IMG/VR virus record: IMGVR_UViG_2541047813_000003
Coordinates: 1 to 34,917 of that record
Strand: one strand, 5' to 3'
DNA length: 34,917 nucleotides
Origin: a virus
Taxonomy: Duplodnaviria; Heunggongvirae; Uroviricota; Caudoviricetes
This document shows, one piece after another, positions 1 through 13,968 of this stretch (position 1 is the stretch's first letter; every line of letters begins with the position of its first letter). The notes below the pieces were generated by a model. That model was given only the letters and a program-made list of their open reading frames with translations, ran no database searches and was not told where the DNA came from. The position numbers and the translations under genes are program-made.

Positions 1-1143
1 CTATGCTGTTTTGATATCTACGATAATCCAGTCTTTACCACGATCATCATTGTATCGGTCGGTCATTTTTCTGGATTTATGACCTAACAACTTTTGCGTA
101 TCCAGACCCTGTTCCCGATATAACCGTTCTGACAGAGATCGCTGCTCATGAAATGTGGGCGCAGTTCCTGGCTCCCATTTTATGCCACATTTTTCCCTGG
201 CCTTTTTAAAAGCCGTTGTAAGAGTATTTGCAGAAACCTGGTCTCCTCTGTTTGCTTGAGAGGTAGTGTGACGGTAATGGACCAGATATTTACTAACAAC
301 AGCATCCCTGCACTGAGATATAACTTCACGAAGGGTAATATTCAGAGCATCGCATTTCAGGCTAAGCGGAATAGCAAGTTTTGAACCGGTTTTTTCCTGA
401 GTAATGTGCAACATGTCGTCCCATATATCAGAGAATTTCAAATTGCAGATATCGCCTAAACGTTGTCCAGTAACAAGAGCAAGTAGCATGCCGCATTTTA
501 AATAGGGCTGCCGTCTGCTTACGCTTTCAAATATTGCCTGCCATTCGGGCAGTGATAATCTTTGGCGGTTTACTCGATTTCGCGGTTGTTTTGTTGCCTG
601 CGCTGGGTTAAATCCTGGCGGAACATGTCCTGCGTGTTGTGCTTCTTTGAAGACGTCGATCAACACCATTCTCACGACTTGCGCCATCCTGTTATGACCT
701 TCAGCCTTTACAGCATCAATTATTTCGGCAATATCAAGTGCGGTAATATCCTTGAGGTGTTGCATTCCACAATGCTCACGGAAAAGACGAATGGGTTTAC
801 CTTTTTGCCGATAGGAGTTGGGTTTTAGTTCATTATGTTGCAGCCTGTCCTCCTGGATAGAAATATATTTATCAAGCCATTCTGTCACCGTAATGTCTGA
901 ACGCCTGCCTTTCATTCTTTCTAGACGCTCATTGACGCTTAATATTTGTCGGGTACGTTGTTCAGCAATAATGGTATTTGCTTCAGTAGCAACTTGTTTT
1001 GCTTCATTCTCATCAGTTCCTAAGCTATGAAAACGACCGGATAGTGGATGTTTGTATTGCCAATATACCTTTCCGGTTCGCTTATCTAATTTGCAATATA
1101 AATTGGGTATAGAGATTTTGTGAGATCGGGGTCTAGCAGCCAT
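1..1143 (-). CDS. int: Tyrosine site-specific integrase (lambda Int family)
   Basis: 380-aa ORF; ATG at 1143, stop at 1-3; C-terminal catalytic region with the LGHKS...DRY tyrosine-recombinase signature; start overlaps the xis end, as in lambda. Confidence 0.9.
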   Translation of the reverse strand: MAARPRSHKISIPNLYCKLDKRTGKVYWQYKHPLSGRFHSLGTDENEAKQVATEANTIIAEQRTRQILSVNERLERMKGRRSDITVTEWLDKYISIQEDRLQHNELKPNSYRQKGKPIRLFREHCGMQHLKDITALDIAEIIDAVKAEGHNRMAQVVRMVLIDVFKEAQHAGHVPPGFNPAQATKQPRNRVNRQRLSLPEWQAIFESVSRRQPYLKCGMLLALVTGQRLGDICNLKFSDIWDDMLHITQEKTGSKLAIPLSLKCDALNITLREVISQCRDAVVSKYLVHYRHTTSQANRGDQVSANTLTTAFKKAREKCGIKWEPGTAPTFHEQRSLSERLYREQGLDTQKLLGHKSRKMTDRYNDDRGKDWIIVDIKTA

Positions 1144-3088: not shown

Positions 3089-3249
3089 ACACTCTCCCGT
3101 TTATTATTTATCTCCTCAGCCAGTCGCTGGGCTTTCAGCGGATTTCGGATAACAGAAGGCCCGGGAAATACCCAGCCTCGCTTTGTAACGGAGTAGACGA
3201 AAGTGATCGCACCTACCCGGATATTATCGTGAGGATGCTTCATCGCCAT
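3085..3249 (-). CDS. Small ORF translationally coupled to exo (lambda orf60a-like)
   Basis: [33 protein letters not shown]...; ATG at 3243 overlaps the exo stop (ATGA), with an alternative in-frame ATG at 3249; stop overlaps the start of the TGT-like gene. Below the ORF-track size cutoff, found by manual translation. Confidence 0.45.
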
Positions 3250-3920
3250 TGCTCCCCAAATACAAAACCAATTTCAGCCAGTGCCTCGTCCATTTTTTCG
3301 ATGAACTCCGGCACCATCTCGTCAAAACTCGCCATGTACTTTTCATCCCGCTCAACCACGACATAATGCAGTCCTTCACGCTTCATACGCGGGTCATAGT
3401 TGGCAAAGTACCAGGCATCTTTTCGCGTCACCCACATGCTGTACTGCACCTGGGCCATGTAAGCTGACTTTATGGCCTCGAAACCACCGAGCCGGAACTT
3501 CATGAAATCCCGGGAGGTAAACGGGCATTTCAGTTCAAGGCCGTTGCCGTCACTGCATAAACCATCTGGAGAGCAGGCGGTACGCATACTTTCGTCGCGA
3601 TAGATGATCGGTGATTCAGTAACATTCACGCCGGAAGTGAACTCAAACAGGGCTCTGGCGTCGTTCTCGTACTGTTTTCCCCAGGCCAGCGCTTTAGCGT
3701 TAACTTCCGGAGCCACACCGGTGCAAACCTCAGCAAGCAGGGTGTGGAAGTAGGACATTTTCATGTCAGGCCACTTTTTTCCGGAGCGGGGTTTTGCTAT
3801 TACGTTATGAACTTCTGAAGCTGTGATGACGCCGAGCCGTAATTTGTGCCACGCATCATCCCCCTGTTCGACAGCTCTCACGTCGATCCCGGTACGCTGC
3901 AGGATAATGTCCGGTGTCAT
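3240..3920 (-). CDS. exo: Lambda exonuclease (Red alpha)
   Basis: 226-aa translation essentially identical to phage lambda Exo as I remember it; overlaps the bet stop. Confidence 0.95.
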
Positions 3921-4702
3921 GCTGCCACCTTCTGCTCTGCGGCTTTCTGTTTCAGGAATCCAAGAGCTTTTACTGCTTCGGCCTGTGTCAGTTCTGACGA
4001 TGCGCGAATGTCGCGGCGAAATATCTGGGAACAGAGCGGCAATAAGTCGTCATCCCATGTTTTATCCAGGGCGATCAGCAGAGTGTTAATCTCCTGCATG
4101 CTTTCATCGTTAACCGGAGTGATGTCGCGTTCCGGCTGACGTTCTGCAGTGTATGCGGTATTTTCGACAATGCGCTCGGCTTCATCCTTGTCATAGATAC
4201 CAGCAAATCCGAAGGCCAGACGGGCACACTGAATCATAGCTTTATGCCGTAACATTCGTTTGGGATGCGACTGCCACGGTCCCGTGATTTCTCTGCCTTC
4301 GCGGGTTTTGAATGGTTCGCGGCGGCATTCATCCATCCACTCGGTAACGCAGATCGGATGATTACGGTCCTTGCGGTAAATCCGGCATGTACATGATTCA
4401 TTGTCCTGCTCAAAGTCCATGCCATCAAACTGCTGGTTTTCATTAATGATGCGGGACCAGCCATCAACGCCCACCACAGGAACGATGCCGTTCTGCTTAT
4501 CAGGGAAGGCGTAAATTTCTTTCGTCCACGGATTAAGGCCGTACTGGTTGGCGACGATCAGCAATGCGATGAACTGCGCATCGCTGGCATCACCTTTAAA
4601 TGCCGTCTGACGAAGAGTGGTGATCAGTTCCTGTGGGTCGACAGAATCCATGCCGACACGTTCAGCCAGCTTCCCGGCTAGCGTTGCGAGTGCTGTACTC
4701 AT
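3917..4702 (-). CDS. bet: Red beta single-strand annealing protein
   Basis: 261-aa translation essentially identical to lambda Bet ([37 protein letters not shown]...). Confidence 0.95.
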
Positions 4703-4707
4703 CCGTT

Positions 4708-5004
4708 TTATACCTCTGAATCAATATCAACATGGTGGTGAGCAATGGTTTCAACCATGTACCGGATGTGTTCTGCCATGCGCTCCTGAAACTCAACATC
4801 GTCATCAAACGCACGGGTAATGGCTTTTTTGCTGGCCCCGCAGCGTTGCAAATGATCGATGCAGAGTGATTCAAACAGGTGCTGTGGAAGACCTTTTTCC
4901 ATGTCGTCTGCCAGTTCTGCCTCTTTCTCTTCACGGGCGATCTGCTGGTAGTGACGCGCCCAGCTTTGAGCCTCAAGACGATCCTGAATGTAATAAGCGT
5001 TCAT
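4708..5004 (-). CDS. gam: Gam, RecBCD inhibitor (short 98-aa form)
   Basis: 98-aa translation matches lambda Gam ([34 protein letters not shown]...). An in-frame TAA lies upstream of the ATG, so no long N-terminal extension is encoded. Confidence 0.9.
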
Positions 5005-5079
5005 GGCTGAACTCCTGAAAATGGCTGTGAAAATATCGCCCGCGAAATGCCGGGCTGATTAGGAAAACAGGAAAGGGGA

Positions 5080-5370
5080 TTAGTGATTCAGGCCGTTGCC
5101 GCGCCCGTCGAGAAAAACTTCCACGAGCAAATCACGGGTATAAGTGCGCTCGATGCCGCGATGCAGATAAAGCCGTCCGCGTAAATTAGCTGATGCAGTC
5201 CAGGTACCATCTTTGTGTTTGACCAGCATTCCTGGCATGACCGCACCTCGATTAACGGTCTGCGTTCCGTAATGTTGATGAACCATAAAAACTCCTGCCC
5301 GTAAGCTGGGCTGCTGAACATATAGAGACTTCTGCGCGTATTCAGGCGGTGGATGGCCGCCGGTTGTCAT
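5080..5370 (-). CDS. Hypothetical protein, first gene downstream of predicted pL (lambda N/kil position)
   Basis: 96 aa from the ATG at 5370 (GAGGCGG RBS about 8 nt upstream). The ORF track extends the frame to a TTG at 5490, adding an arginine-rich stretch (RLREVRGVKRTRERR). Function unknown. Confidence 0.4.
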
Positions 5371-5508
5371 AACTAAGCCGCCTCGTTGAAACGACTGAGG
5401 TATGAAGTGTTGAGTTGATTTCAGCTGGTCACACCGACGTTCACGCGTCCGCTTCACCCCTCGCACTTCCCGAAGCCTGCTGAAATTCAAGCTGCGGACC
5501 TAAGCGGT

Positions 5509-5558
5509 CATCGCAACGGTGAATCAGGTGGTTGCCGTATCGTTGTGTTGTTGCGATG
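5509..5558 (-). promoter_or_regulatory. Stem-loop at the 5' end of the predicted pL transcript
   Basis: On the minus strand CAUCGCAAC ...32 nt... GUUGCGAUG (9-bp perfect inverted repeat), beginning at about +1 of the predicted pL transcript; no U-tract follows, so not a terminator. Confidence 0.3.
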
Positions 5559-5563
5559 AATTT

Positions 5564-5592
5564 ATTTAAAACTATAGTTGTTTTGTTGTCAA
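5564..5592 (-). promoter_or_regulatory. Predicted leftward early promoter pL
   Basis: Minus strand TTGACA (plus 5587-5592), 17-bp spacer, TTAAAT (plus 5564-5569); sits between the repressor-operon terminator and the leftward early genes. Confidence 0.5.
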
Positions 5593-5600
5593 CAACAAAA
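5581..5600. promoter_or_regulatory. Candidate oL operator palindrome overlapping pL -35
   Basis: TTTTGTTG-TCAA-CAACAAAA, 8-bp perfect inverted-repeat arms; further GTTGTT copies across 5577-5640; related to the palindrome at pR. Confidence 0.4.
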
Positions 5601-5729
5601 GTTGTTTTATTGGTTGTTTTAGATGTAACTGGTTGTATTTAGGATGGGTTTATTTTGTGACTTGCATCGCATAGCGATAACTGAAGGGAGATTGTGGTGG
5701 TTTTTTGAACGGTATACGTGATGAGGGGA

Positions 5730-5762
5730 GGGGATAAAAGAAAACCCGGCACGGTGGCCGGG
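5730..5762 (-). terminator. Intrinsic terminator ending the repressor operon
   Basis: Minus-strand hairpin CCCGGC-CACCGU-GCCGGG followed by UUUUCUUUUAU, starting 6 nt after the stop of the 5768-6709 gene. Confidence 0.6.
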
Positions 5763-5767
5763 TATCT

Positions 5768-6709
5768 TTATTCGAATGGAAGATCTATTTGCCTTTGAGG
5801 ATTCAACTGTTTTTTTACATGCTCAATTTCGAATATGGTTTTTATGGCATCTCCGATCATATATTGAGTTACTTTTAAATCTACAAGTAACATATCACCT
5901 TTAGAAAAATTTAAGGTGTTGTTATCAATATCGCTGATGAATTTCTGGTCTTTTATTTCAGCCAAAAAGCTACTGGCACCATCAGAAAACCGCCACCGGC
6001 TTCCTTCATTGAAGGAAATATTTTTAATTTGAAGGGCTTTCTCTACTGTGTACTCTGAAATTATTGATTCTGCTGGTAGATTGACTTTGAAATAATGTGC
6101 TTCTTGCTTGTTGATCGTCATGAATGTCAAACCATCATCGACAGTAGAGGCAAAGCTGTCAATGCCTTCCTGCTCTAATGGCTTACTTATAACTTCTTGT
6201 AATGAAGAGCGAAGTTTAATATTTTTATAAAGTTCAATAACGTTACTGTCGTAGATCTCGCTTTCGTCATCAACAAAGACTTCGATGTTGCTATCAGGCA
6301 AATTGTGTAATTTTTTTATTTTCCTTGGACCTATCCATTTTATCAGTTGAATTAGGCCTTTGCATATTTTTTCTTTAGAACCAGGACAGAGTCCAATAAA
6401 AGCAATCAAATTCGCAGCGGCTGTTGCTGAATCGCCGGATAAAAAATCAACAGCCTGTTTGAACCAAGATGTAGATGAGGCAACCAGATCTATTCCAAAT
6501 GAGCCAGCTTTAAATGATGCATTGACTTTTACAGAAACAACAGTCTTGTTTCCGTAGAGAGTTTTACCGGCTTCCTCTAATGCATCTGATAGTGATAGAA
6601 GGGCAGGAGCAAGGTCTCGCACGTTCATTTCATGCGTTTCCAGTGCCGGACCGTCGTATACTATCCTGAACTTCATATCATTGGTTTCCGAATTGTTGCC
6701 CGCATCCAT
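5768..6709 (-). CDS. Uncharacterized protein (about 313 aa) in the rexAB-equivalent slot, co-oriented with cI
   Basis: ORF 5768-6721 (GTG at 6721); first ATG at 6709 with AGGTGA RBS, alternative ATG at 6676. AT-rich relative to flanks. No recognisable catalytic or membrane motif; the sequence does not remind me of RexA/RexB. Confidence 0.75.
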   Translation of the reverse strand: MDAGNNSETNDMKFRIVYDGPALETHEMNVRDLAPALLSLSDALEEAGKTLYGNKTVVSVKVNASFKAGSFGIDLVASSTSWFKQAVDFLSGDSATAAANLIAFIGLCPGSKEKICKGLIQLIKWIGPRKIKKLHNLPDSNIEVFVDDESEIYDSNVIELYKNIKLRSSLQEVISKPLEQEGIDSFASTVDDGLTFMTINKQEAHYFKVNLPAESIISEYTVEKALQIKNISFNEGSRWRFSDGASSFLAEIKDQKFISDIDNNTLNFSKGDMLLVDLKVTQYMIGDAIKTIFEIEHVKKQLNPQRQIDLPFE

Positions 6710-6782
6710 TATGGCATTCACCTGATCACATATACAGTTAATTTACGATATTGTCTTAAATCTTAAAACTTCTATTGTATGG

Positions 6783-7472
6783 CTACCCATGCTTCCTATA
6801 CGTCTGCGGCATGCTCCCAATAACCTTACCGAAGATGAACACCCGGTTCATCTCGTCTTTCTCGATCGGGTCCCAAGGTGAGTAGCTCTTGTTATCAGAG
6901 ATAACCAGCAGCTTATCCTTCATCATTTGCAGACGCTTTACATGGGCTGTGTCGTCGTACAGAAACGCATAGATACCATCACCGTCGAAAGATTTAACCG
7001 TGATATCAACGAACAGCAGATCACCTGGTTCGATCGTTCCTGACATGCTGTCACCGCGTACGTTAATGATACGGATATTTTCCGCCTTCCTGCCATCGAA
7101 CATGTGACGAGCATCGTCAAACGAATACTCAACCGAACGTAGAACTTCTACAAACTCACGGTTGATGACTCCCGGCCCGGCACTCACTTCGATATCAAGA
7201 ACGTCAATCTTAAAGTATTTGGAATGGCTGACAGTTGTTTGTATTGGTTGCACTGTACTGTCTGACATATTTCCAACGCCAGAAGATAACCATTCTGCGC
7301 GCACACCCAAAGCGTTCGCGATCTCCACGATTTTAGTTGTTTGGTTAGCTTTCCCTGTTTCGATTTTCTGAATAGCTGCTTGGCTAACCCCGACCAAATC
7401 CCCAAGCGCCTTTTGTGTAAGGCCTCGCGCTAATCTGGCTTCTTTAAGTCTTTCTGAGAGTGTTGTTTTCAT
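6783..7472 (-). CDS. Prophage repressor (CI-type; N-terminal HTH plus C-terminal S24 LexA-like peptidase domain)
   Basis: 229 aa from the ATG at 7472: HTH (LTQKALGDLVGVSQAAIQKIE), Ala-Gly cleavage site (EVSAGPG), catalytic Ser (GDSMSGT) and Lys (VKRLQ). No SD before the ATG, and pRM -10 is 6 nt upstream, so the mRNA is probably leaderless as for lambda cI. Confidence 0.85.
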   Translation of the reverse strand: MKTTLSERLKEARLARGLTQKALGDLVGVSQAAIQKIETGKANQTTKIVEIANALGVRAEWLSSGVGNMSDSTVQPIQTTVSHSKYFKIDVLDIEVSAGPGVINREFVEVLRSVEYSFDDARHMFDGRKAENIRIINVRGDSMSGTIEPGDLLFVDITVKSFDGDGIYAFLYDDTAHVKRLQMMKDKLLVISDNKSYSPWDPIEKDEMNRVFIFGKVIGSMPQTYRKHG

Positions 7473-7478
7473 AGTCCA

Positions 7479-7507
7479 AATGTACAACCAAGGTTTTATT
7501 TCATCAA
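7479..7507 (-). promoter_or_regulatory. Predicted repressor maintenance promoter (pRM-like)
   Basis: Minus strand TTGATG (plus 7502-7507), 17-bp spacer, TACATT (plus 7479-7484), ending 6 nt before the cI ATG. Confidence 0.45.
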
Positions 7508-7514
7508 ACGAAAA

Positions 7515-7537
7515 TGGTTGTTGACTAAAAACAACCA
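7515..7537. promoter_or_regulatory. Candidate oR operator palindrome overlapping pR -35
   Basis: TGGTTGTT-GACTAAA-AACAACCA (8-bp perfect inverted arms); an adjacent 10-bp palindrome AACCATGGTT (7532-7541) and AACCAAGGTT (7487-7496) share the same half-site. Confidence 0.45.
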
Positions 7538-7549
7538 TGGTTTTAATCT
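7521..7549 (+). promoter_or_regulatory. Predicted rightward early promoter pR
   Basis: TTGACT (7521-7526), 17-bp spacer, TAATCT (7544-7549); followed by a GGAGG RBS and the cro-like ATG at 7577. Confidence 0.55.
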
Positions 7550-7576
7550 TGATTCAAATTAACCACGGAGGTTGTT

Positions 7577-7807
7577 ATGAACCCAGCCATCAAAACAGCG
7601 ATCAATATCGTTGGTTCACAAAAGAAACTAGGCGCTGCCTGCGAAGTTTCACAGCAGGCCGTCTATAAGTGGCTTCACAACAAAGCAAAGGTATCCCCTG
7701 AACATGTCGGCAGCATTGTTACGGCTACTGGTGGAGTAGTGAAGGCATACCAGATTCGCCCGGATCTTCCGAAGTTGTTTCCACACACTGAAAAGAACGC
7801 AGCTTAA
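7577..7807 (+). CDS. Cro-like HTH regulator
   Basis: 76-aa ORF divergent from the repressor gene, with an HTH-like segment (QKKLGAACEVSQQAVYKWL). Confidence 0.8.
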   Translation: MNPAIKTAINIVGSQKKLGAACEVSQQAVYKWLHNKAKVSPEHVGSIVTATGGVVKAYQIRPDLPKLFPHTEKNAA

Positions 7808-7819
7808 ATTTCCATTTCA

Positions 7820-7833
7820 CGCTCTTTAACAAT
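7820..7833 (+). promoter_or_regulatory. boxA-like element (nutR-position)
   Basis: CGCTCTTTAACAAT just after the cro-like stop; matches the boxA consensus CGCTCTTTA and the rrn-type boxA GCTCTTTAACAAT as I recall them. No convincing boxB hairpin follows. Confidence 0.4.
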
Positions 7834-7876: not shown

Positions 7877-8416
7877 ATGCAACCACTTACATACCAACAG
7901 ACTAGCGGATTTAGCCCGACTGCGGTGATAAATCGTTCTCAAACAAAACAAGCTCCAGGCCACGAAAAAATCCGTGATGCCGTCCGCGCCTGGTCGGCTG
8001 TAGATAATCAGGATGTCGTTGCCGCACTCATTGTGAATGAGTATCGGGAGCAGGGCGGCGGCACCATCGATTTCCCTGATGATGTCAGCCGTGCACGCCA
8101 GAAGCTGTTCCGCTTCCTCGATAACAAATTCGATTCTGAAAAATACCGAAATAACGTGCGTGAACTGACCCCGGCAATTCTGGCGGTACTACCGCTGGAA
8201 TATCGCGGTTACCTAGTTGAGCAGGATAGCTTCATGGCTCGGCTGGCTGAAATGGAAAAGGAACTCAGTGAGGCAAAGCAGGCGGTCATTCTCAACGCAC
8301 CACGCCACCAGAAACTGAAGGAGATGAGTGAAGGCATTGTGTCGATGTTTCGAGTGGACCCGGATCTGGCTGGTCCACTGATGGCGATGGTCACCACCAT
8401 GCTGGGGGCAATATGA
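7877..8416 (+). CDS. Hypothetical protein in the cII position (possibly YdaT-like)
   Basis: 179-aa ORF with strong RBS (AAAGGAG); contains an EYREQGGG segment reminiscent of YdaT-type proteins that follow Cro-like genes in some E. coli prophages (recollection only). Confidence 0.6.
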   Translation: MQPLTYQQTSGFSPTAVINRSQTKQAPGHEKIRDAVRAWSAVDNQDVVAALIVNEYREQGGGTIDFPDDVSRARQKLFRFLDNKFDSEKYRNNVRELTPAILAVLPLEYRGYLVEQDSFMARLAEMEKELSEAKQAVILNAPRHQKLKEMSEGIVSMFRVDPDLAGPLMAMVTTMLGAI

Positions 8417-10429: not shown

Positions 10430-10496
10430 TGAAACAGGTGAGTTGAGTTCAAACTGTAGTACAATTCTCTCCAGTTTGAACAGGAAAGAATATGCT

Positions 10497-10829
10497 ATGA
10501 ATCCTTATATTTATCTTGGTGGTGCAATACTTGCAGAGGTCATTGGTACAACCTTAATGAAGTTTTCAGAAGGTTTTACACGGTTATGGCCATCTGTTGG
10601 TACAATTATTTGTTATTGTGCATCATTCTGGTTATTAGCTCAGACGCTGGCTTATATTCCTACAGGGATTGCTTATGCTATCTGGTCAGGAGTCGGTATT
10701 GTCCTGATTAGCTTACTATCATGGGGATTTTTCGGCCAACGGTTGGACCTGCCAGCCATTATAGGCATGATGTTGATTTGTGCCGGTGTGTTGGTTATTA
10801 ATTTATTGTCACGAAGCACACCACATTAA
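10497..10829 (+). CDS. emrE: SMR-family multidrug efflux transporter EmrE
   Basis: 110 aa from the ATG at 10497 (MNPYIYLGGAILAEVIGTTLMKFSEGF...), matching E. coli EmrE with conserved Glu14 and four TM segments; the ORF track starts at an upstream TTG. Confidence 0.9.
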   Translation: MNPYIYLGGAILAEVIGTTLMKFSEGFTRLWPSVGTIICYCASFWLLAQTLAYIPTGIAYAIWSGVGIVLISLLSWGFFGQRLDLPAIIGMMLICAGVLVINLLSRSTPH

Positions 10830-11084
10830 AAATAATTTGTTTTTAAACGACTAAAATATGGAGGCTCGTATATTTATATGGGCCTCGTTTTATGCTTTTT
10901 GTTAATGTCTTTAGTTTTTATTCATTCTTTTGTGCTTTCAAGATTATGGTGTAAGAAAATTGCAATGCGATTATTGTTGTATATTCAAGATAATGTGACC
11001 TTAATTGTCTTTTTAAATAAAAATTAAACAAAAATCATATCTCACCACTAAGGTTTATAAAAGCATACTTTAGCAGGTGTCACC

Positions 11085-12611
11085 ATGAAAAAAGCCATAG
11101 CATATATGCGATTTTCATCACCAGGTCAGATGTCTGGTGATTCATTAAACCGCCAGAGAAGGCTTATTACTGAATGGCTAAAGGTAAATAGTGATTATTA
11201 CCTTGATACCGTAACGTATGAAGATTTGGGGTTAAGCGCATTCAATGGAAAGCATGCACAATCAGGAGCTTTTTCGGAATTTTTAGATGCTATAGAACAT
11301 GGTTATATATTGCCAGGGACTACATTGTTAGTTGAAAGTCTGGACAGACTTTCAAGAGAAAAAGTCGGTGAAGCGATTGAGCGTCTGAAATTGATTTTGA
11401 ATCACGGTATTGATGTTATAACTCTTTGCGATAATACAGTCTATAATATTGACTCATTGAATGAGCCATATTCATTAATAAAAGCCATACTTATAGCACA
11501 AAGGGCAAATGAAGAAAGCGAGATAAAGTCAAGTCGGGTTAAATTATCATGGAAGAAAAAACGGCAGGATGCACTGGAGTCAGGCACGATTATGACGGCT
11601 TCTTGTCCGAGATGGCTCTCATTGGATGACAAAAGAACGGCTTTTGTTCCAGACCCCGACAGGGTGAAAACTATTGAGCTAATTTTTAAACTCAGGATGG
11701 AAAGGCGCTCATTGAATGCAATAGCCAAGTATTTAAATGATCATGCTGTAAAGAATTTCTCAGGAAAAGAAAGTGCATGGGGACCTTCTGTAATTGAAAA
11801 ATTATTAGCGAATAAAGCTCTGATAGGTATATGCGTACCTTCATATCGTGCAAGAGGGAAAGGGATAAGTGAAATCGCTGGCTATTATCCCAGAGTCATA
11901 TCAGATGATTTGTTTTACGCTGTACAGGAAATTCGGTTGGCACCTTTTGGTATTAGCAATAGTAGCAAGAATCCTATGCTAATAAATCTACTTCGAACAG
12001 TTATGAAGTGTGAGGCTTGTGGTAATACCATGATTGTTCATGCGGTATCTGGAAGTTTGCATGGCTATTATGTTTGTCCGATGAGAAGATTACATCGATG
12101 TGACAGACCATCAATAAAAAGAGATTTGGTTGATTATAATATCATTAATGAATTGCTTTTTAATTGTAGCAAAATTCAACCAGTTGAAAACAAGAAAGAT
12201 GCTAATGAAACTTTAGAGTTAAAAATTATTGAGCTTCAGATGAAAATTAATAATTTAATCGTTGCATTGTCTGTCGCGCCTGAAGTTACCGCTATAGCAG
12301 AGAAAATAAGACTATTAGATAAGGAATTACGAAGGGCTTCGGTATCATTAAAAACTTTGAAGAGTAAAGGGGTGAGTTCACTTGGTGATTTTCATGCTAT
12401 TGATTTAACCAGTAAAAATGGGCGAGAGCTATGTCGTACACTTGCCTATAAAATATTCGAAAAAATTATAATTAATACAGATAATAAAACCTGTGATATC
12501 TATTTTATGAATGGCATTGTTTTTAAACACTATCCTTTAATGAAAGTAATATCCGCCCAGCAGGCGATAAGTACTCTTAAATATATGGTTGATGGTGAGA
12601 TTTATTTTTGA
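11085..12611 (+). CDS. ybcK: Large serine recombinase (DLP12 YbcK-like)
   Basis: 508 aa; N-terminal resolvase/invertase catalytic domain (AIAYMRFSSPGQ...), recombinase domain, Cys-rich zinc ribbon (CEACGN...CPMRRLHRC) and coiled-coil C-terminal region. AT-rich; same neighbourhood as ybcK in DLP12. Confidence 0.8.
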   Translation: MKKAIAYMRFSSPGQMSGDSLNRQRRLITEWLKVNSDYYLDTVTYEDLGLSAFNGKHAQSGAFSEFLDAIEHGYILPGTTLLVESLDRLSREKVGEAIERLKLILNHGIDVITLCDNTVYNIDSLNEPYSLIKAILIAQRANEESEIKSSRVKLSWKKKRQDALESGTIMTASCPRWLSLDDKRTAFVPDPDRVKTIELIFKLRMERRSLNAIAKYLNDHAVKNFSGKESAWGPSVIEKLLANKALIGICVPSYRARGKGISEIAGYYPRVISDDLFYAVQEIRLAPFGISNSSKNPMLINLLRTVMKCEACGNTMIVHAVSGSLHGYYVCPMRRLHRCDRPSIKRDLVDYNIINELLFNCSKIQPVENKKDANETLELKIIELQMKINNLIVALSVAPEVTAIAEKIRLLDKELRRASVSLKTLKSKGVSSLGDFHAIDLTSKNGRELCRTLAYKIFEKIIINTDNKTCDIYFMNGIVFKHYPLMKVISAQQAISTLKYMVDGEIYF

Positions 12612-12935
12612 GTAATAATCACTTTTTCAACCGTGCTATGGTATGAAAGTAAAGTGACTAATATGATATTAACTATCTTGAACGAAGCGCCCTGAGCTAT
12701 AGTTTTACTATAGGCACTGCCACTGGATGTTGGCATTCTTGCTCTAGTAGCTCAACAATACCCAATCACAAAACAATTCACTGATAACAAACTTTGTGCA
12801 CGTGCTTGGTTATGGCGAACAGGTGATGTTAACCTCTTGCCTGAATGCCACTCCACTTCATTAAGTATCTGAGCACCGAGAGGCTGGTCACGCCCCCATT
12901 AAAAATAATTTCTTTTGAATCGAGTGAAATAGGTT

Positions 12936-12962
12936 AGCCCGCATAAGTGCGGGCTGCTTTTT
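12936..12962 (+). terminator. Intrinsic terminator-like hairpin
   Basis: AGCCCGCA-TAAG-TGCGGGCT followed by GCTTTTT; lies between the convergent recombinase and esterase genes. Confidence 0.45.
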
Positions 12963-13968
12963 ACAGGTCAGCGTTTGTTTTTTGTTGTTGGGTAGCGGTT
13001 TTTATGGGGGTTCCCAGGTTTTTAGTAAACCACTCAACAACTCTGTTTATAATAATTGGCTGATACCATGTATTATCGCCATGCTCAGCCCCTTCTACCA
13101 GAACGTACTCAGCGTTATCGCCGTTCTTCTTCAACATCCTGAATAGTTTGGCGCTTTGCTCAGGTGAAACCAGAGTGTCTTTGCTACCATGCATAATAAG
13201 AAATGGGGGTTTTACTCCTTTCATATGTCCGATTGGACTGGCGTTTAGCGCTTTTTCTTTTGACGCTGTTATGGGGGCTCCCGCAAAACTTCTGAATGCA
13301 GGGCCATTGATCATTAAGGCTTCGGTTACGGCAGGAGATCGATGAACCTCCTGCACTGATTCAGGGAACCCCTCGCCAATATTCAACAAGTCAGAAATCC
13401 CATAAAGTGTGGCAACTGCCTGAACATCTGCTGATTGCTGAAGAAAGTCACCTTTATTAAAGGTTTTGTCACCATTTGTAGTTCCCATCATCTGGGCAAG
13501 CCATCCACCGGCAGAGTCACCCAGAACTCCGATTCTTTGAGGATCAATCCCATAATCGCTGGCATGTTCTCTCAAGTAACGTATTGCAGCTTTCCCATCC
13601 TCAACTGGTGCTGGAAATGTATCAGGAATTGTTCTGTATTCTACAGCGGCCACAACAAAACCAGCTTCAGCCAGAGCCATTCTCATTTCAATAAATTTGT
13701 CATGTTCAGAAGACATGAATCCGCCGCCGGGATAATAAATAATGGCTGGTTTTAAATCATTTGTTCGCGGGACAAGAACTGACATGTGAAGCTGTCTGAC
13801 AGAACGAGTTCCTTTTATCTGGGAATAAACAACATCACCAATGAGATCGACCTGGTTTCTGGTGGGTGAAACACTAATGATATCTGCACCCGGGGTGTAA
13901 CCAGGAAAATTAGTCTGGACAGGTGTTGCACAACTCCCGACCGACATGGCCATTGACATACCATACAA
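12961..13968 (-). CDS. Alpha/beta-hydrolase fold esterase/lipase (HGGG-type)
   Basis: 335-aa ORF with oxyanion-hole motif YYPGGGF, nucleophile elbow GDSAGG and a C-terminal His (AEHGDN); N-terminus ambiguous (see findings). Confidence 0.8.
   Translation of the reverse strand: MYGMSMAMSVGSCATPVQTNFPGYTPGADIISVSPTRNQVDLIGDVVYSQIKGTRSVRQLHMSVLVPRTNDLKPAIIYYPGGGFMSSEHDKFIEMRMALAEAGFVVAAVEYRTIPDTFPAPVEDGKAAIRYLREHASDYGIDPQRIGVLGDSAGGWLAQMMGTTNGDKTFNKGDFLQQSADVQAVATLYGISDLLNIGEGFPESVQEVHRSPAVTEALMINGPAFRSFAGAPITASKEKALNASPIGHMKGVKPPFLIMHGSKDTLVSPEQSAKLFRMLKKNGDNAEYVLVEGAEHGDNTWYQPIIINRVVEWFTKNLGTPIKTATQQQKTNADL

Follow-up and report, generated by a model that had tools for sequence, protein, structure and literature searches.

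A conserved, apparently untranslated leader module upstream of kil in lambdoid phages of Escherichia coli: a candidate early-operon regulatory RNA

Organization of the Early Operons

The window, i.e., the whole 34,917-nt stretch of DNA that was analyzed, is a lambdoid prophage or phage of a Bievrevirus-like group, with PhiR47_2, IdasGreatGrand, Turner and 4A7 as its nearest relatives. The following genes and signals were located in it:

1-1143, minus strand: int
3240-3920, minus strand: exo
3917-4702, minus strand: bet
4708-5004, minus strand: gam
5080-5490, minus strand: the ORF under study, 136 aa from TTG
5513..5557, minus strand: C-rich 5' spacer of the pL transcript, AUCGCAACAACACAACG...GUUGCGAU, with the predicted start near 5557
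5564..5592, minus strand: predicted pL, TTGACA (5592-5587), 17 nt, TTAAAT (5569-5564), read directly
5744..5763, minus strand: intrinsic terminator (7-bp G+C-rich stem and T-run) at the end of the cI/317-aa gene unit upstream of pL
5768-6721, minus strand: 317-aa LAPAL-family gene in the rexAB position
6783-7538, minus strand: S24/HTH repressor (cI)
7577-7807, plus strand: YdaS-like cro
7877-8416, plus strand: YdaT-like cII
rightward of cII, plus strand: O, P, Ren, NinB, RusA and a Q-like antiterminator

The ORF at 5080..5490 had been described, from the sequence alone, as a single gene occupying the position of N. It is indeed present and encodes 136 aa from a TTG codon, with a translation starting MNFSRLREVRGVKRTRERRCDQLK. 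It also contains the in-frame ATG (5370-5368) with GAGGCGG ahead of it that had been noted before, and it is the sole sizeable minus-strand ORF between gam and pL. Its placement in the 'N position' was borne out by the gene order and by the location of pL at 5592-5564, whose repeats recur at pR. The order pL - leader - kil - gam - bet - exo is the same in 4A7, PhiR47_2, HK639 and phi80.

The predicted pL overlaps operator repeats (GTTGTTGAC / AACAAC), and the same repeats and -35/-10 layout are found at pR (7514-7550). pL was missed by a simple promoter scan because of its -10 element, the second position of which is not A. Phages of different immunity groups become homologous at 5557/5556; in a third immunity group the spacer is replaced and homology is rejoined at about 5524. 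The first ~20 nt of the spacer in the window are similar to the phi80/HK639-type spacer CAUCGAAACGAAACAUCGA.

The kil Gene

Contrary to the sequence-only reading, which had recognized no kil in this interval, the C-terminal 68 aa of the ORF product correspond to a Kil protein of the KilR/phi80 type:

5080..5286, minus strand: kil, a 68-aa KilR/phi80-Kil-type candidate FtsZ inhibitor (ATG 5286-5284, stop 5082-5080)
5292..5296, minus strand: kil Shine-Dalgarno sequence AGGAG, 5 nt ahead of ATG 5286, read directly

The ORF product matches PHROG family phrog_294 ('Kil protein for bacterial septation inhibition') in its C-terminal part only (E 2.5e-38). The 68-aa product matches NCBIfam NF008465 ('FtsZ inhibitor protein') over residues 1-68 against positions 1-70 of 73 (E 1.8e-17), with a score of 63 bits that lies under the curated cutoff of 92 bits. 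Both matches are confined to the C-terminal 68-77 residues of the ORF product. The precomputed protein family of the Kil product is PF27398. No match for it was found in the local copy of Pfam, and it does not belong to the lambda Kil family, which may be the reason why kil had been missed.

Kil of phi80, HK225 and HK639 could be aligned with the 68-aa product over its entire length (M1 to H68). The alignment contains 19 invariant columns, M1 and H68 among them, and identity to phi80 and HK639 Kil is 38-42%. DNA homology to the Kil genes of Citrobacter, Kluyvera, Silvania, Enterobacter and Pseudocitrobacter prophages starts exactly at 5286, and in phage D2 a lambda-type kil is substituted exactly at this ATG, with the Shine-Dalgarno sequence retained. 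An uninterrupted 68-aa frame was found in 109 of 112 related loci. Variable sites in kil are distributed as 11/14/34 over codon positions 1/2/3, with 44 synonymous and 23 non-synonymous changes; gam, the alignment of which was mixed, was left out as a codon-position comparison. In the RefSeq annotation of an identical prophage, a 207-nt CDS is called 'phage encoded cell division inhibitor protein' and the sequence upstream of it is unannotated.

ATG 5370, previously considered the best-supported start, must give way to ATG 5286, which has AGGAG at 5 nt and at which both the homology and the module boundaries begin. There is hardly any doubt, in our judgment, that Kil starts at 5286 and that the upstream extension is non-coding. 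The protein gene of the ORF appears to be an ordinary Kil, and the ORF itself a composite of a real gene (the last 68 codons) and an untranslated leader. The predicted untranslated pL leader of ~270 nt consists of 204 nt of the ORF and 67 nt further upstream. Many phage records and metagenome catalogues list 96-, 128- and 136-aa 'Kil' or 'hypothetical' proteins; these are extended too far upstream of the gene, which encodes 68 aa.

The Extension Upstream of kil

The sequence-only reading had offered the extension as a possible divergent N-like antiterminator with an arginine-rich motif (ARM), translated from TTG 5490. This candidate was rejected for lack of homology, a disrupted frame and the absence of a codon signal. 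Residues 1-68 of the ORF (5287-5490) had no match in Pfam, PHROG or NCBIfam. BLASTP of the extension against phi80 N gave no alignment, and a comparison with PDB, the N and Nun peptides included, gave nothing at E<=10. Using tblastn with N (lambda N among the queries), Nun and HK225 gp38, we found nothing in the window or in related loci, while the positive control was found. The profile, PDB, BLASTP and tblastn searches thus agree with the earlier statement that no lambda N is recognizable here. Since the window and its relatives contain no homologue of N, Nun or HK225 gp38, the phage appears to lack N, and the suggestion that it regulates early transcription differently is supported as far as sequence can show.

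The frame itself is poorly preserved. At least six kinds of frameshift or stop disrupt it in ~20 of 119 related loci, in which kil stays intact. In a diverged group of homologues (type A2, see below) a TGA is present five codons after the TTG in seven out of seven cases (alignment columns 38-40). Variable sites in 5490-5371 are distributed as 6/4/6 by codon position (8 synonymous, 10 non-synonymous), without third-position bias. TTG 5490 is preceded by a weak AGG only, ~10 nt upstream, and PGAP annotates nothing on the extension among the E. coli genomes listed. A protein search with the 136-aa ORF returned only variably extended Kil calls, and the 'divergent' 95-aa forms among them turned out to be frameshift-ridden assemblies.

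The arginine-rich translation reported earlier does exist, but it is not beyond chance: when the 35-kb window was translated in six frames, 19 stretches of 15 aa contained at least 6 R and at least 7 R+K. We infer that the 'arginine-rich motif' is a mere translation of a G-rich stem-loop region. The extension is better explained as structured RNA with compensatory base changes than as protein.

Two Modules in the Leader

The leader is composed of two exchangeable modules, A and B, split at about 5406:

5557-5407, minus strand: module A (core 5512-5418, ~95 nt, type A1), a candidate cis-acting regulatory/antiterminator RNA
5287..5406, minus strand: module B, a conserved non-coding hairpin-rich element
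5396-5376, minus strand: hairpin 1 of module B; the 'GAGGCGG RBS' is its loop and 3' arm
5361-5345, minus strand: hairpin 2 of module B, GGCGG/CCGCC, invariant
5311-5297, minus strand: hairpin 3 of module B, GCCC/GGGC, just before the kil Shine-Dalgarno sequence, covarying

Both TTG 5490 and the 'ARM' (5478-5434) fall inside the module A core, which would correspond to about +45 to +140 of the transcript predicted from pL. The 161-nt stretch that follows the predicted start was found in 2210 of 5426 complete E. coli genomes with identity of 95-99%, and the core is near-invariant in 119 IMG/VR and phage loci. In 85 unique related sequences, nucleotide diversity was 0.001-0.03 across 5510-5271 vs. 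0.03-0.10 in kil, a comparison with some bias, as an exact 19-mer had served to choose the loci.

A diverged type, A2, was revealed by nhmmer (E 7e-13) in two IMG/VR loci, L300 and L355, and a targeted scan brought the number of A2 loci to 15. A2 is ~82% identical to A1 in the core, and the flanks are unalignable. Type A1 is found behind three operator types. Type A2 is always located just after the promoter, behind eight further operator types, those of the phi80 and HK639 promoters included. Taken together, at least 11 operator types precede module A, which begins where transcription starts. The genes downstream of A2 include others than kil. According to a covariance model (CM) of module A, each phage contains exactly one copy, and no second copy was detected in pR operons by blastn-short, nhmmer or the CM (R2).

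It should be mentioned that the pR operon contains two collinear 13-15-nt matches to the leader that flank the boxA located after cro, each with E about 2. Two other candidates were set aside. The HK639 'M3-like RNA', considered as a right-operon partner, co-occurs with A2 and is absent from the window; it may be simply an oop-like terminator hairpin. The Pas sRNA described in a preprint concerns unrelated loci. No Rfam family reached its gathering score in the window and the leader gave only chance-level matches, a result that is uninformative on put because Rfam has no put family (0 matches for the HK022 locus).

In module B, hairpin 1 is formed by stems that differ and yet remain complementary in four lineages (AGUCG/CGGCU, AGCAAC/GUUGCU, GGCAGA/UCUGCC and GAGUC/GGCUC). 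ATG 5370 is located within an invariant stretch, UUAGUUAUGACAACC, and a further conserved run, GCGCAGAAGUCU, lies 3' of hairpin 2. The nine codons that begin with ATG 5370 do not vary among more than 240 loci. In the majority of other phages, the equivalent ATG opens an ORF of 15-21 aa (MTTGGHPPP..., with a PPP motif), and past codon 9 the run GCGCAGAAGUCU is read in three frames in different phages, which indicates that the constraint there is on the nucleic acid and not on the peptide. The 96-aa call arises because the mini-ORF of the window happens to run in frame into kil.

Homologues of module B were found after gp38 in HK225, in Enterobacter phage ENT1 and downstream of putL in HK639, the annotation of which shows hairpin 2 as a terminator. 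The IMG/VR loci with module B number more than 120, and in several of these an HK022-type putL is located 0.6-1.4 kb further upstream. In phi80 the homology begins at the end of tL1A, which follows N, and the annotated Rho-dependent terminator tL1B lies ~115 nt downstream of the stretch that matches module B. In phi80 and HK639 alike, module B directly follows an intrinsic terminator. The gene ahead of module B was rejected as a diagnostic feature, the upstream ORF being hypervariable accessory cargo. No canonical intrinsic terminator was found in the window between module A and kil; terminator-like sites are present at 5055-5038 and 2092-2074. In locus L300, a strong intrinsic terminator is located between A2 and module B/kil.

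Predicted Structure of Module A

RNAalifold applied to 22 unique A1 and A2 cores predicted two stem-loops, independently of the pair counts given below:

about 5506-5462, minus strand: stem-loop I (SL-I), with a covarying stem 5493-5489 / 5478-5474 and the loop AUUUCAGC (5486-5479)
5458-5427, minus strand: stem-loop II (SL-II)
5425-5418, minus strand: the tail GCUGAAAU, complementary to the SL-I loop, at which conservation ends

Three compensatory pairs (AU<->CG, GC<->AU and AU<->GC) were revealed in module A. The SL-I stem is 100% paired and contains AU<->CG and GC<->AU together with a CG->UG change; the changes in SL-II are AU<->GC and GU<->AU. In controls with the partners slid by 1-3 columns the number of compensatory pairs was 0. 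The compensatory changes constitute modest evidence, since all of them derive from one A1/A2 split and hence from few independent events, and variation among the E. coli A1 copies is too low for covariation. Some A1/A2 differences break predicted pairs (columns 59-82 and 67-74). The first candidate hairpins, around 5473/5468, were rejected, as frequent C.A combinations spoke against them. The single-sequence fold of module A is not unusually stable (z -1.4; whole leader, z -0.5).

The loop AUUUCAGC of SL-I and the invariant tail GCUGAAAU are perfectly complementary, and a pseudoknot may form between them. The loop-tail helix is invariant across copies.

Replacement of putL and nutL-N by Module A

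Comparison of promoter-proximal regions revealed that: (i) L300 and HK639 are identical from the -10 region through ~50 nt of the transcript and again over ~60 nt before the first gene, while between these identical flanks HK639 contains the 75-nt putL and L300 contains the ~100-nt A2 core; (ii) in phi80 the same 5' spacer is followed, past the point of divergence, by boxA/nutL and N; (iii) A2 is found behind phi80's own pL promoter and operators in L376 and L377, and behind the pL promoter and operators of HK639 in L374 and L383.

The replacing element is not a member of the put family, since a put CM (R1) that scored 93-98 bits for putL and 51 bits for putR gave no match for the leader of the window, the A1 and A2 loci, or leaders from other genera. 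In the window its best match lay outside the leader and scored 8.4 bits, and a run with filters off gave about 6 bits. Module A also lacks the put signature blocks (GAACGGC and GGCGGGUUCAGGAUGAACGGCAAU). A Kil search of 185k species genomes yielded nine loci, the leaders of which belong to other sequence types and match neither the put CM nor the module A CM.

Module A is very probably a selected and structured leader RNA cassette that occupies the slot of nutL-N and putL.

Possible Function of Module A

The put RNAs bind the beta' zinc-binding domain. They act in cis as antiterminator RNAs (PMC9378689). Put-like mechanisms in N-less lambdoid phages have so far been a matter of speculation among specialists (PMC12315714), and put is the sole phage example of an RNA that binds RNA polymerase against termination in a 2025 review (PMC12360218). 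We propose that module A could act in a similar way. On leaving RNA polymerase, the nascent module A RNA would act in cis on the transcribing complex, like put RNA, and would make it resistant to the Rho-dependent and intrinsic terminators that, in this model, otherwise keep kil, gam-bet-exo and xis-int silent. A need for antitermination is suggested by the lack of N, Nun and put, by the terminator between A2 and kil in L300, by the terminator-like sites of the window, by the proximity of module B to the annotated terminators of phi80, and by the NusG-dependent termination that holds off kilR of the Rac prophage (PMC5793797).

Different parts of this proposal deserve different confidence. The reading as a whole (kil, an untranslated leader, and module A replacing nutL-N/putL as a cis-acting RNA) seems to us rather probable, a rating that blends three steps: the gene limits, the cassette and the antitermination function. 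For the last step taken separately, processive antitermination without a phage protein, the chances are close to even and perhaps slightly below; the assignment draws on position and complementary distribution. The most specific formulation is more tentative: module A could be a third, previously undescribed, self-sufficient early-antitermination RNA, unrelated to put, that swaps with nutL-N and putL and is present in prophages of ~40% of complete E. coli genomes.

Among the alternatives, the leader might be a local attenuator, i.e., a 5'-UTR control of Rho escape and Kil translation without processive modification of RNA polymerase, in which the mini-ORF of ATG 5370 may participate. C-rich, G-poor tracts are indeed present at 5556-5525 and 5420-5395, and the kilR gene of the Rac prophage is held off by NusG-dependent termination (PMC5793797). 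The position of module B next to tL1A and upstream of tL1B in phi80, its overlap with the annotated HK639 terminator, and the invariant beginning of a mini-ORF that usually encodes a PPP motif point in the same direction. However, these features fit module B better than module A. Module A is not specific for kil, since A2 precedes other genes as well, and the fact that it takes the exact place of putL and nutL-N speaks for a device of their type. As for the mini-ORF, its peptide is not conserved past codon 9, where the nucleotides are read in three frames, and its 'Shine-Dalgarno sequence' lies inside a covarying hairpin. We regard this explanation as unlikely.

It seems still less likely, and quite improbable, that module A, instead of being self-sufficient, is recognized like a nut site by an antiterminator protein that acts in trans and is encoded elsewhere, by the phage or as part of the host Nus complex. 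Its core begins with an invariant CGCUUAG that matches lambda boxA (CGCUCUUA) at 5 of 8 positions and is followed 8 nt downstream by a covarying hairpin, an arrangement that loosely recalls boxA-boxB. A near-consensus boxA, CGCTCTTTAACAA (7820-7832), is also located directly after cro in the pR operon of the window's immunity type; no hairpin follows it. This boxA is tied to one cro/immunity type, however, and is absent from the 4A7-type relatives that contain the same module A. No good boxA was found in the pL leader, nor were paired nut sites (boxA and boxB) or any other common element found across both early operons; in particular, the pR operon is devoid of a second module A. Against a partner protein stands the lack of N, Nun and gp38 homologues in the window and in module-A loci. 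Nothing is encoded between pL and kil, and the genes downstream of A1 and A2 differ, which leaves module A without a conserved partner gene next to it.

The conservation of module A could also reflect hitch-hiking in a recently spread prophage module, without a function of its own. The A1 copies are 95-99% identical, variation within E. coli is too low for strong tests, and the diversity profile is biased by the selection of loci on an exact 19-mer. We find this very improbable, since module A is preserved behind no fewer than 11 unrelated operator/promoter types and in several contexts downstream, is sharply bounded by the transcription start on one side and the end of GCUGAAA on the other, retains an identity of about 82% between A1 and A2 despite unalignable flanks, and differs between A1 and A2 in its stems in a compensatory way.

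Finally, we give almost no credence to an N-like arginine-rich antiterminator that starts at TTG 5490 (or ATG 5370) and is fused to or precedes Kil: the frame 5490-5080 is open in the window and in ~80% of close relatives, KRTRERR is similar to ARM motifs and 96-aa products are common from gene callers (P0002, 472 members), but the A2 homologues contain TGA in this frame, the extension shows at least six kinds of disruption, no codon-position signal and no homology, start signals at TTG 5490 are weak or absent, comparable arginine-rich windows arise 19 times by chance, and RefSeq calls a 68-aa CDS.

Significance and Comparison with Known Systems

Module A may credibly be proposed to represent a new class of regulatory RNAs of early operons, and a conserved, structured leader cassette that swaps with putL and nutL-N makes this candidate concrete and easily testable. 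If module A works alone on RNA polymerase, it would add to the phages of E. coli a second class of natural RNAs with this property. If the proposal is true, module A would control expression of the toxic kil and of the Red genes for recombination in a large part of the E. coli prophages, would help to explain how nascent RNA controls elongation, and would provide a compact part for synthetic biology.

The Kil protein resembles Rac KilR and phi80 Kil in its length of 68 aa, in its alignment from M1 to the C-terminus and in its location between pL and the recombination genes. The resemblance is limited to 38-42% identity with phi80 and HK639 Kil and lies under the NCBIfam curated cutoff; its activity is predicted from sequence.

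With nutL and N of phi80 and lambda, module A shares the slot directly after pL. The 5' spacer of phi80 is common to the A2 leaders, and module B follows in both. Unlike these phages, the window has neither an N gene nor a matching site in the pR operon, and module A has no boxB-type hairpin with a conserved GNRA-like loop and only a weak boxA-like heptamer.

The put RNAs of HK022 and HK639 differ from module A in sequence and structure, including the signature blocks, and a put-like activity of module A is a prediction. HK022, with its putL and putR, also differs in having a second copy in the pR operon. Nevertheless, the put RNAs, like module A, are promoter-proximal in the pL transcript of N-less lambdoid phages and consist of about 75-100 nt; their two irregular stem-loops have a predicted counterpart in module A. 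The likeness is closest for HK639, where A2 is found between the very flanks that hold putL and where a single copy is annotated, as for module A.

More distant parallels are other processive antiterminator RNAs such as EAR, found in the eps operon of Bacillus. EAR is a structured leader RNA that has been proposed to act in cis and to make RNA polymerase terminator-resistant without a dedicated protein. It belongs to another phylum and is presumably unrelated in sequence, but the principle of a leader RNA acting in cis is the same as that proposed here for module A.

Leader Elements Upstream of kil

The pL operons of N-type, put-type and module-A-type lambdoid phages (named for the antiterminator protein N, the cis-acting antiterminator RNA put and the candidate antiterminator RNA cassette module A) have in common an invariant 45-nt element, UUAGUUAUGACAACCGGCGGCCAUCCACCGCC, with a covarying hairpin 5' of it. 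In the window both lie in module B, the hairpin-rich part of the leader before kil.

Window 5345–5396: invariant 45-nt element and covarying hairpin
Compared loci L003 2501–2560, L011 33100–33165 and L261 2501–2580: the same element and hairpin

A mini-ORF with a polyproline motif begins within the 45-nt element and in most phages is 15–21 aa long. The element and its mini-ORF may constitute a leader peptide or attenuator upstream of kil; alternatively, the element may be purely an RNA element.

Prophages in Citrobacter, Kluyvera, Silvania, Enterobacter and Pseudocitrobacter that bear kil likewise have no N, and neither does a Klebsiella phage that shares the operator type of the window. Other structured leaders were revealed at such loci.

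L132–L139, about 200 nt upstream of kil (kil at 4001): other structured leader types
L260 2570–2660: other structured leader type

Three leader types were recognized among these other-genus and Klebsiella loci: the first carries the motif ACGUUCCGCCAGCCUGGCGACAAGGGCAAAG, the second a long hairpin of about 95 nt and the third a CCACC...GGUGG module. The put and module-A models gave zero matches in the leaders of L132–L139 and L260. Since these leaders fit neither model, additional classes of leader cassette may exist.

Downstream of kil, a terminator-like structure separates this gene from gam. In lambda, the same sequence is translated as an N-terminal extension carried by the long form of Gam.

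5038–5055, minus strand: terminator-like hairpin GCCCGGCATTTCGCGGGC followed by GATATTTTCA

Elements of the pR Operon and the ren-ninB Region

Immediately 3' of cro, the window contains a near-consensus boxA.

7820–7832, plus strand: boxA CGCTCTTTAACAA, one mismatch to the rrn boxA

It is linked to the cro/immunity type of the window and is missing from 4A7-type relatives. No boxB-like hairpin was found 3' of this boxA, and the window also lacks an N gene; in the pR operon, the Nus complex of the host might work on its own.

A pR-side hairpin, annotated in HK639 as "M3-like RNA" and located there directly 3' of cII, is missing from the window. It was found together with module A2 (the diverged type of module A) and also with putL.

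L011 37910–37969; L355 8526–8546; L373 7244–7264; L379 2638–2658: "M3-like RNA" hairpin

On the reverse strand this hairpin looks like a terminator with a T-run behind it, so it may be the end of an oop-like antisense RNA rather than an antiterminator.

Farther along, the ren-ninB interval holds apparent morons.

Within 10443–13968: QacE-like small membrane protein; 508-aa serine recombinase/invertase-like protein; 335-aa esterase (opposite strand)
10861–10886: strong terminator

The Region Between cI and pL

Non-coding DNA upstream of pL is kept across immunity groups (diversity 0.15–0.24), with more variable DNA on either side.

5600–5745, minus strand: conserved non-coding stretch of about 145 nt, bounded by the upstream terminator on one side and the pL operators on the other
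5551–5578, plus strand: promoter-like site directed into this stretch
5768–6721, minus strand: gene for a 317-aa LAPAL-family protein (NF053583, phrog_3243)

In the window and in L001, L002, L008, L009 and L260, the slot from cI to pL is a hot spot for cargo. The window has the LAPAL-family gene there; PhiR47_2 carries GevA/GevT, 4A7 an ASCH-domain pair, PhiR30_1 and PhiR68_2 other pairs, and a Klebsiella phage RexA/RexB. In lambda, the position equivalent to this slot of the window is occupied by rexAB.
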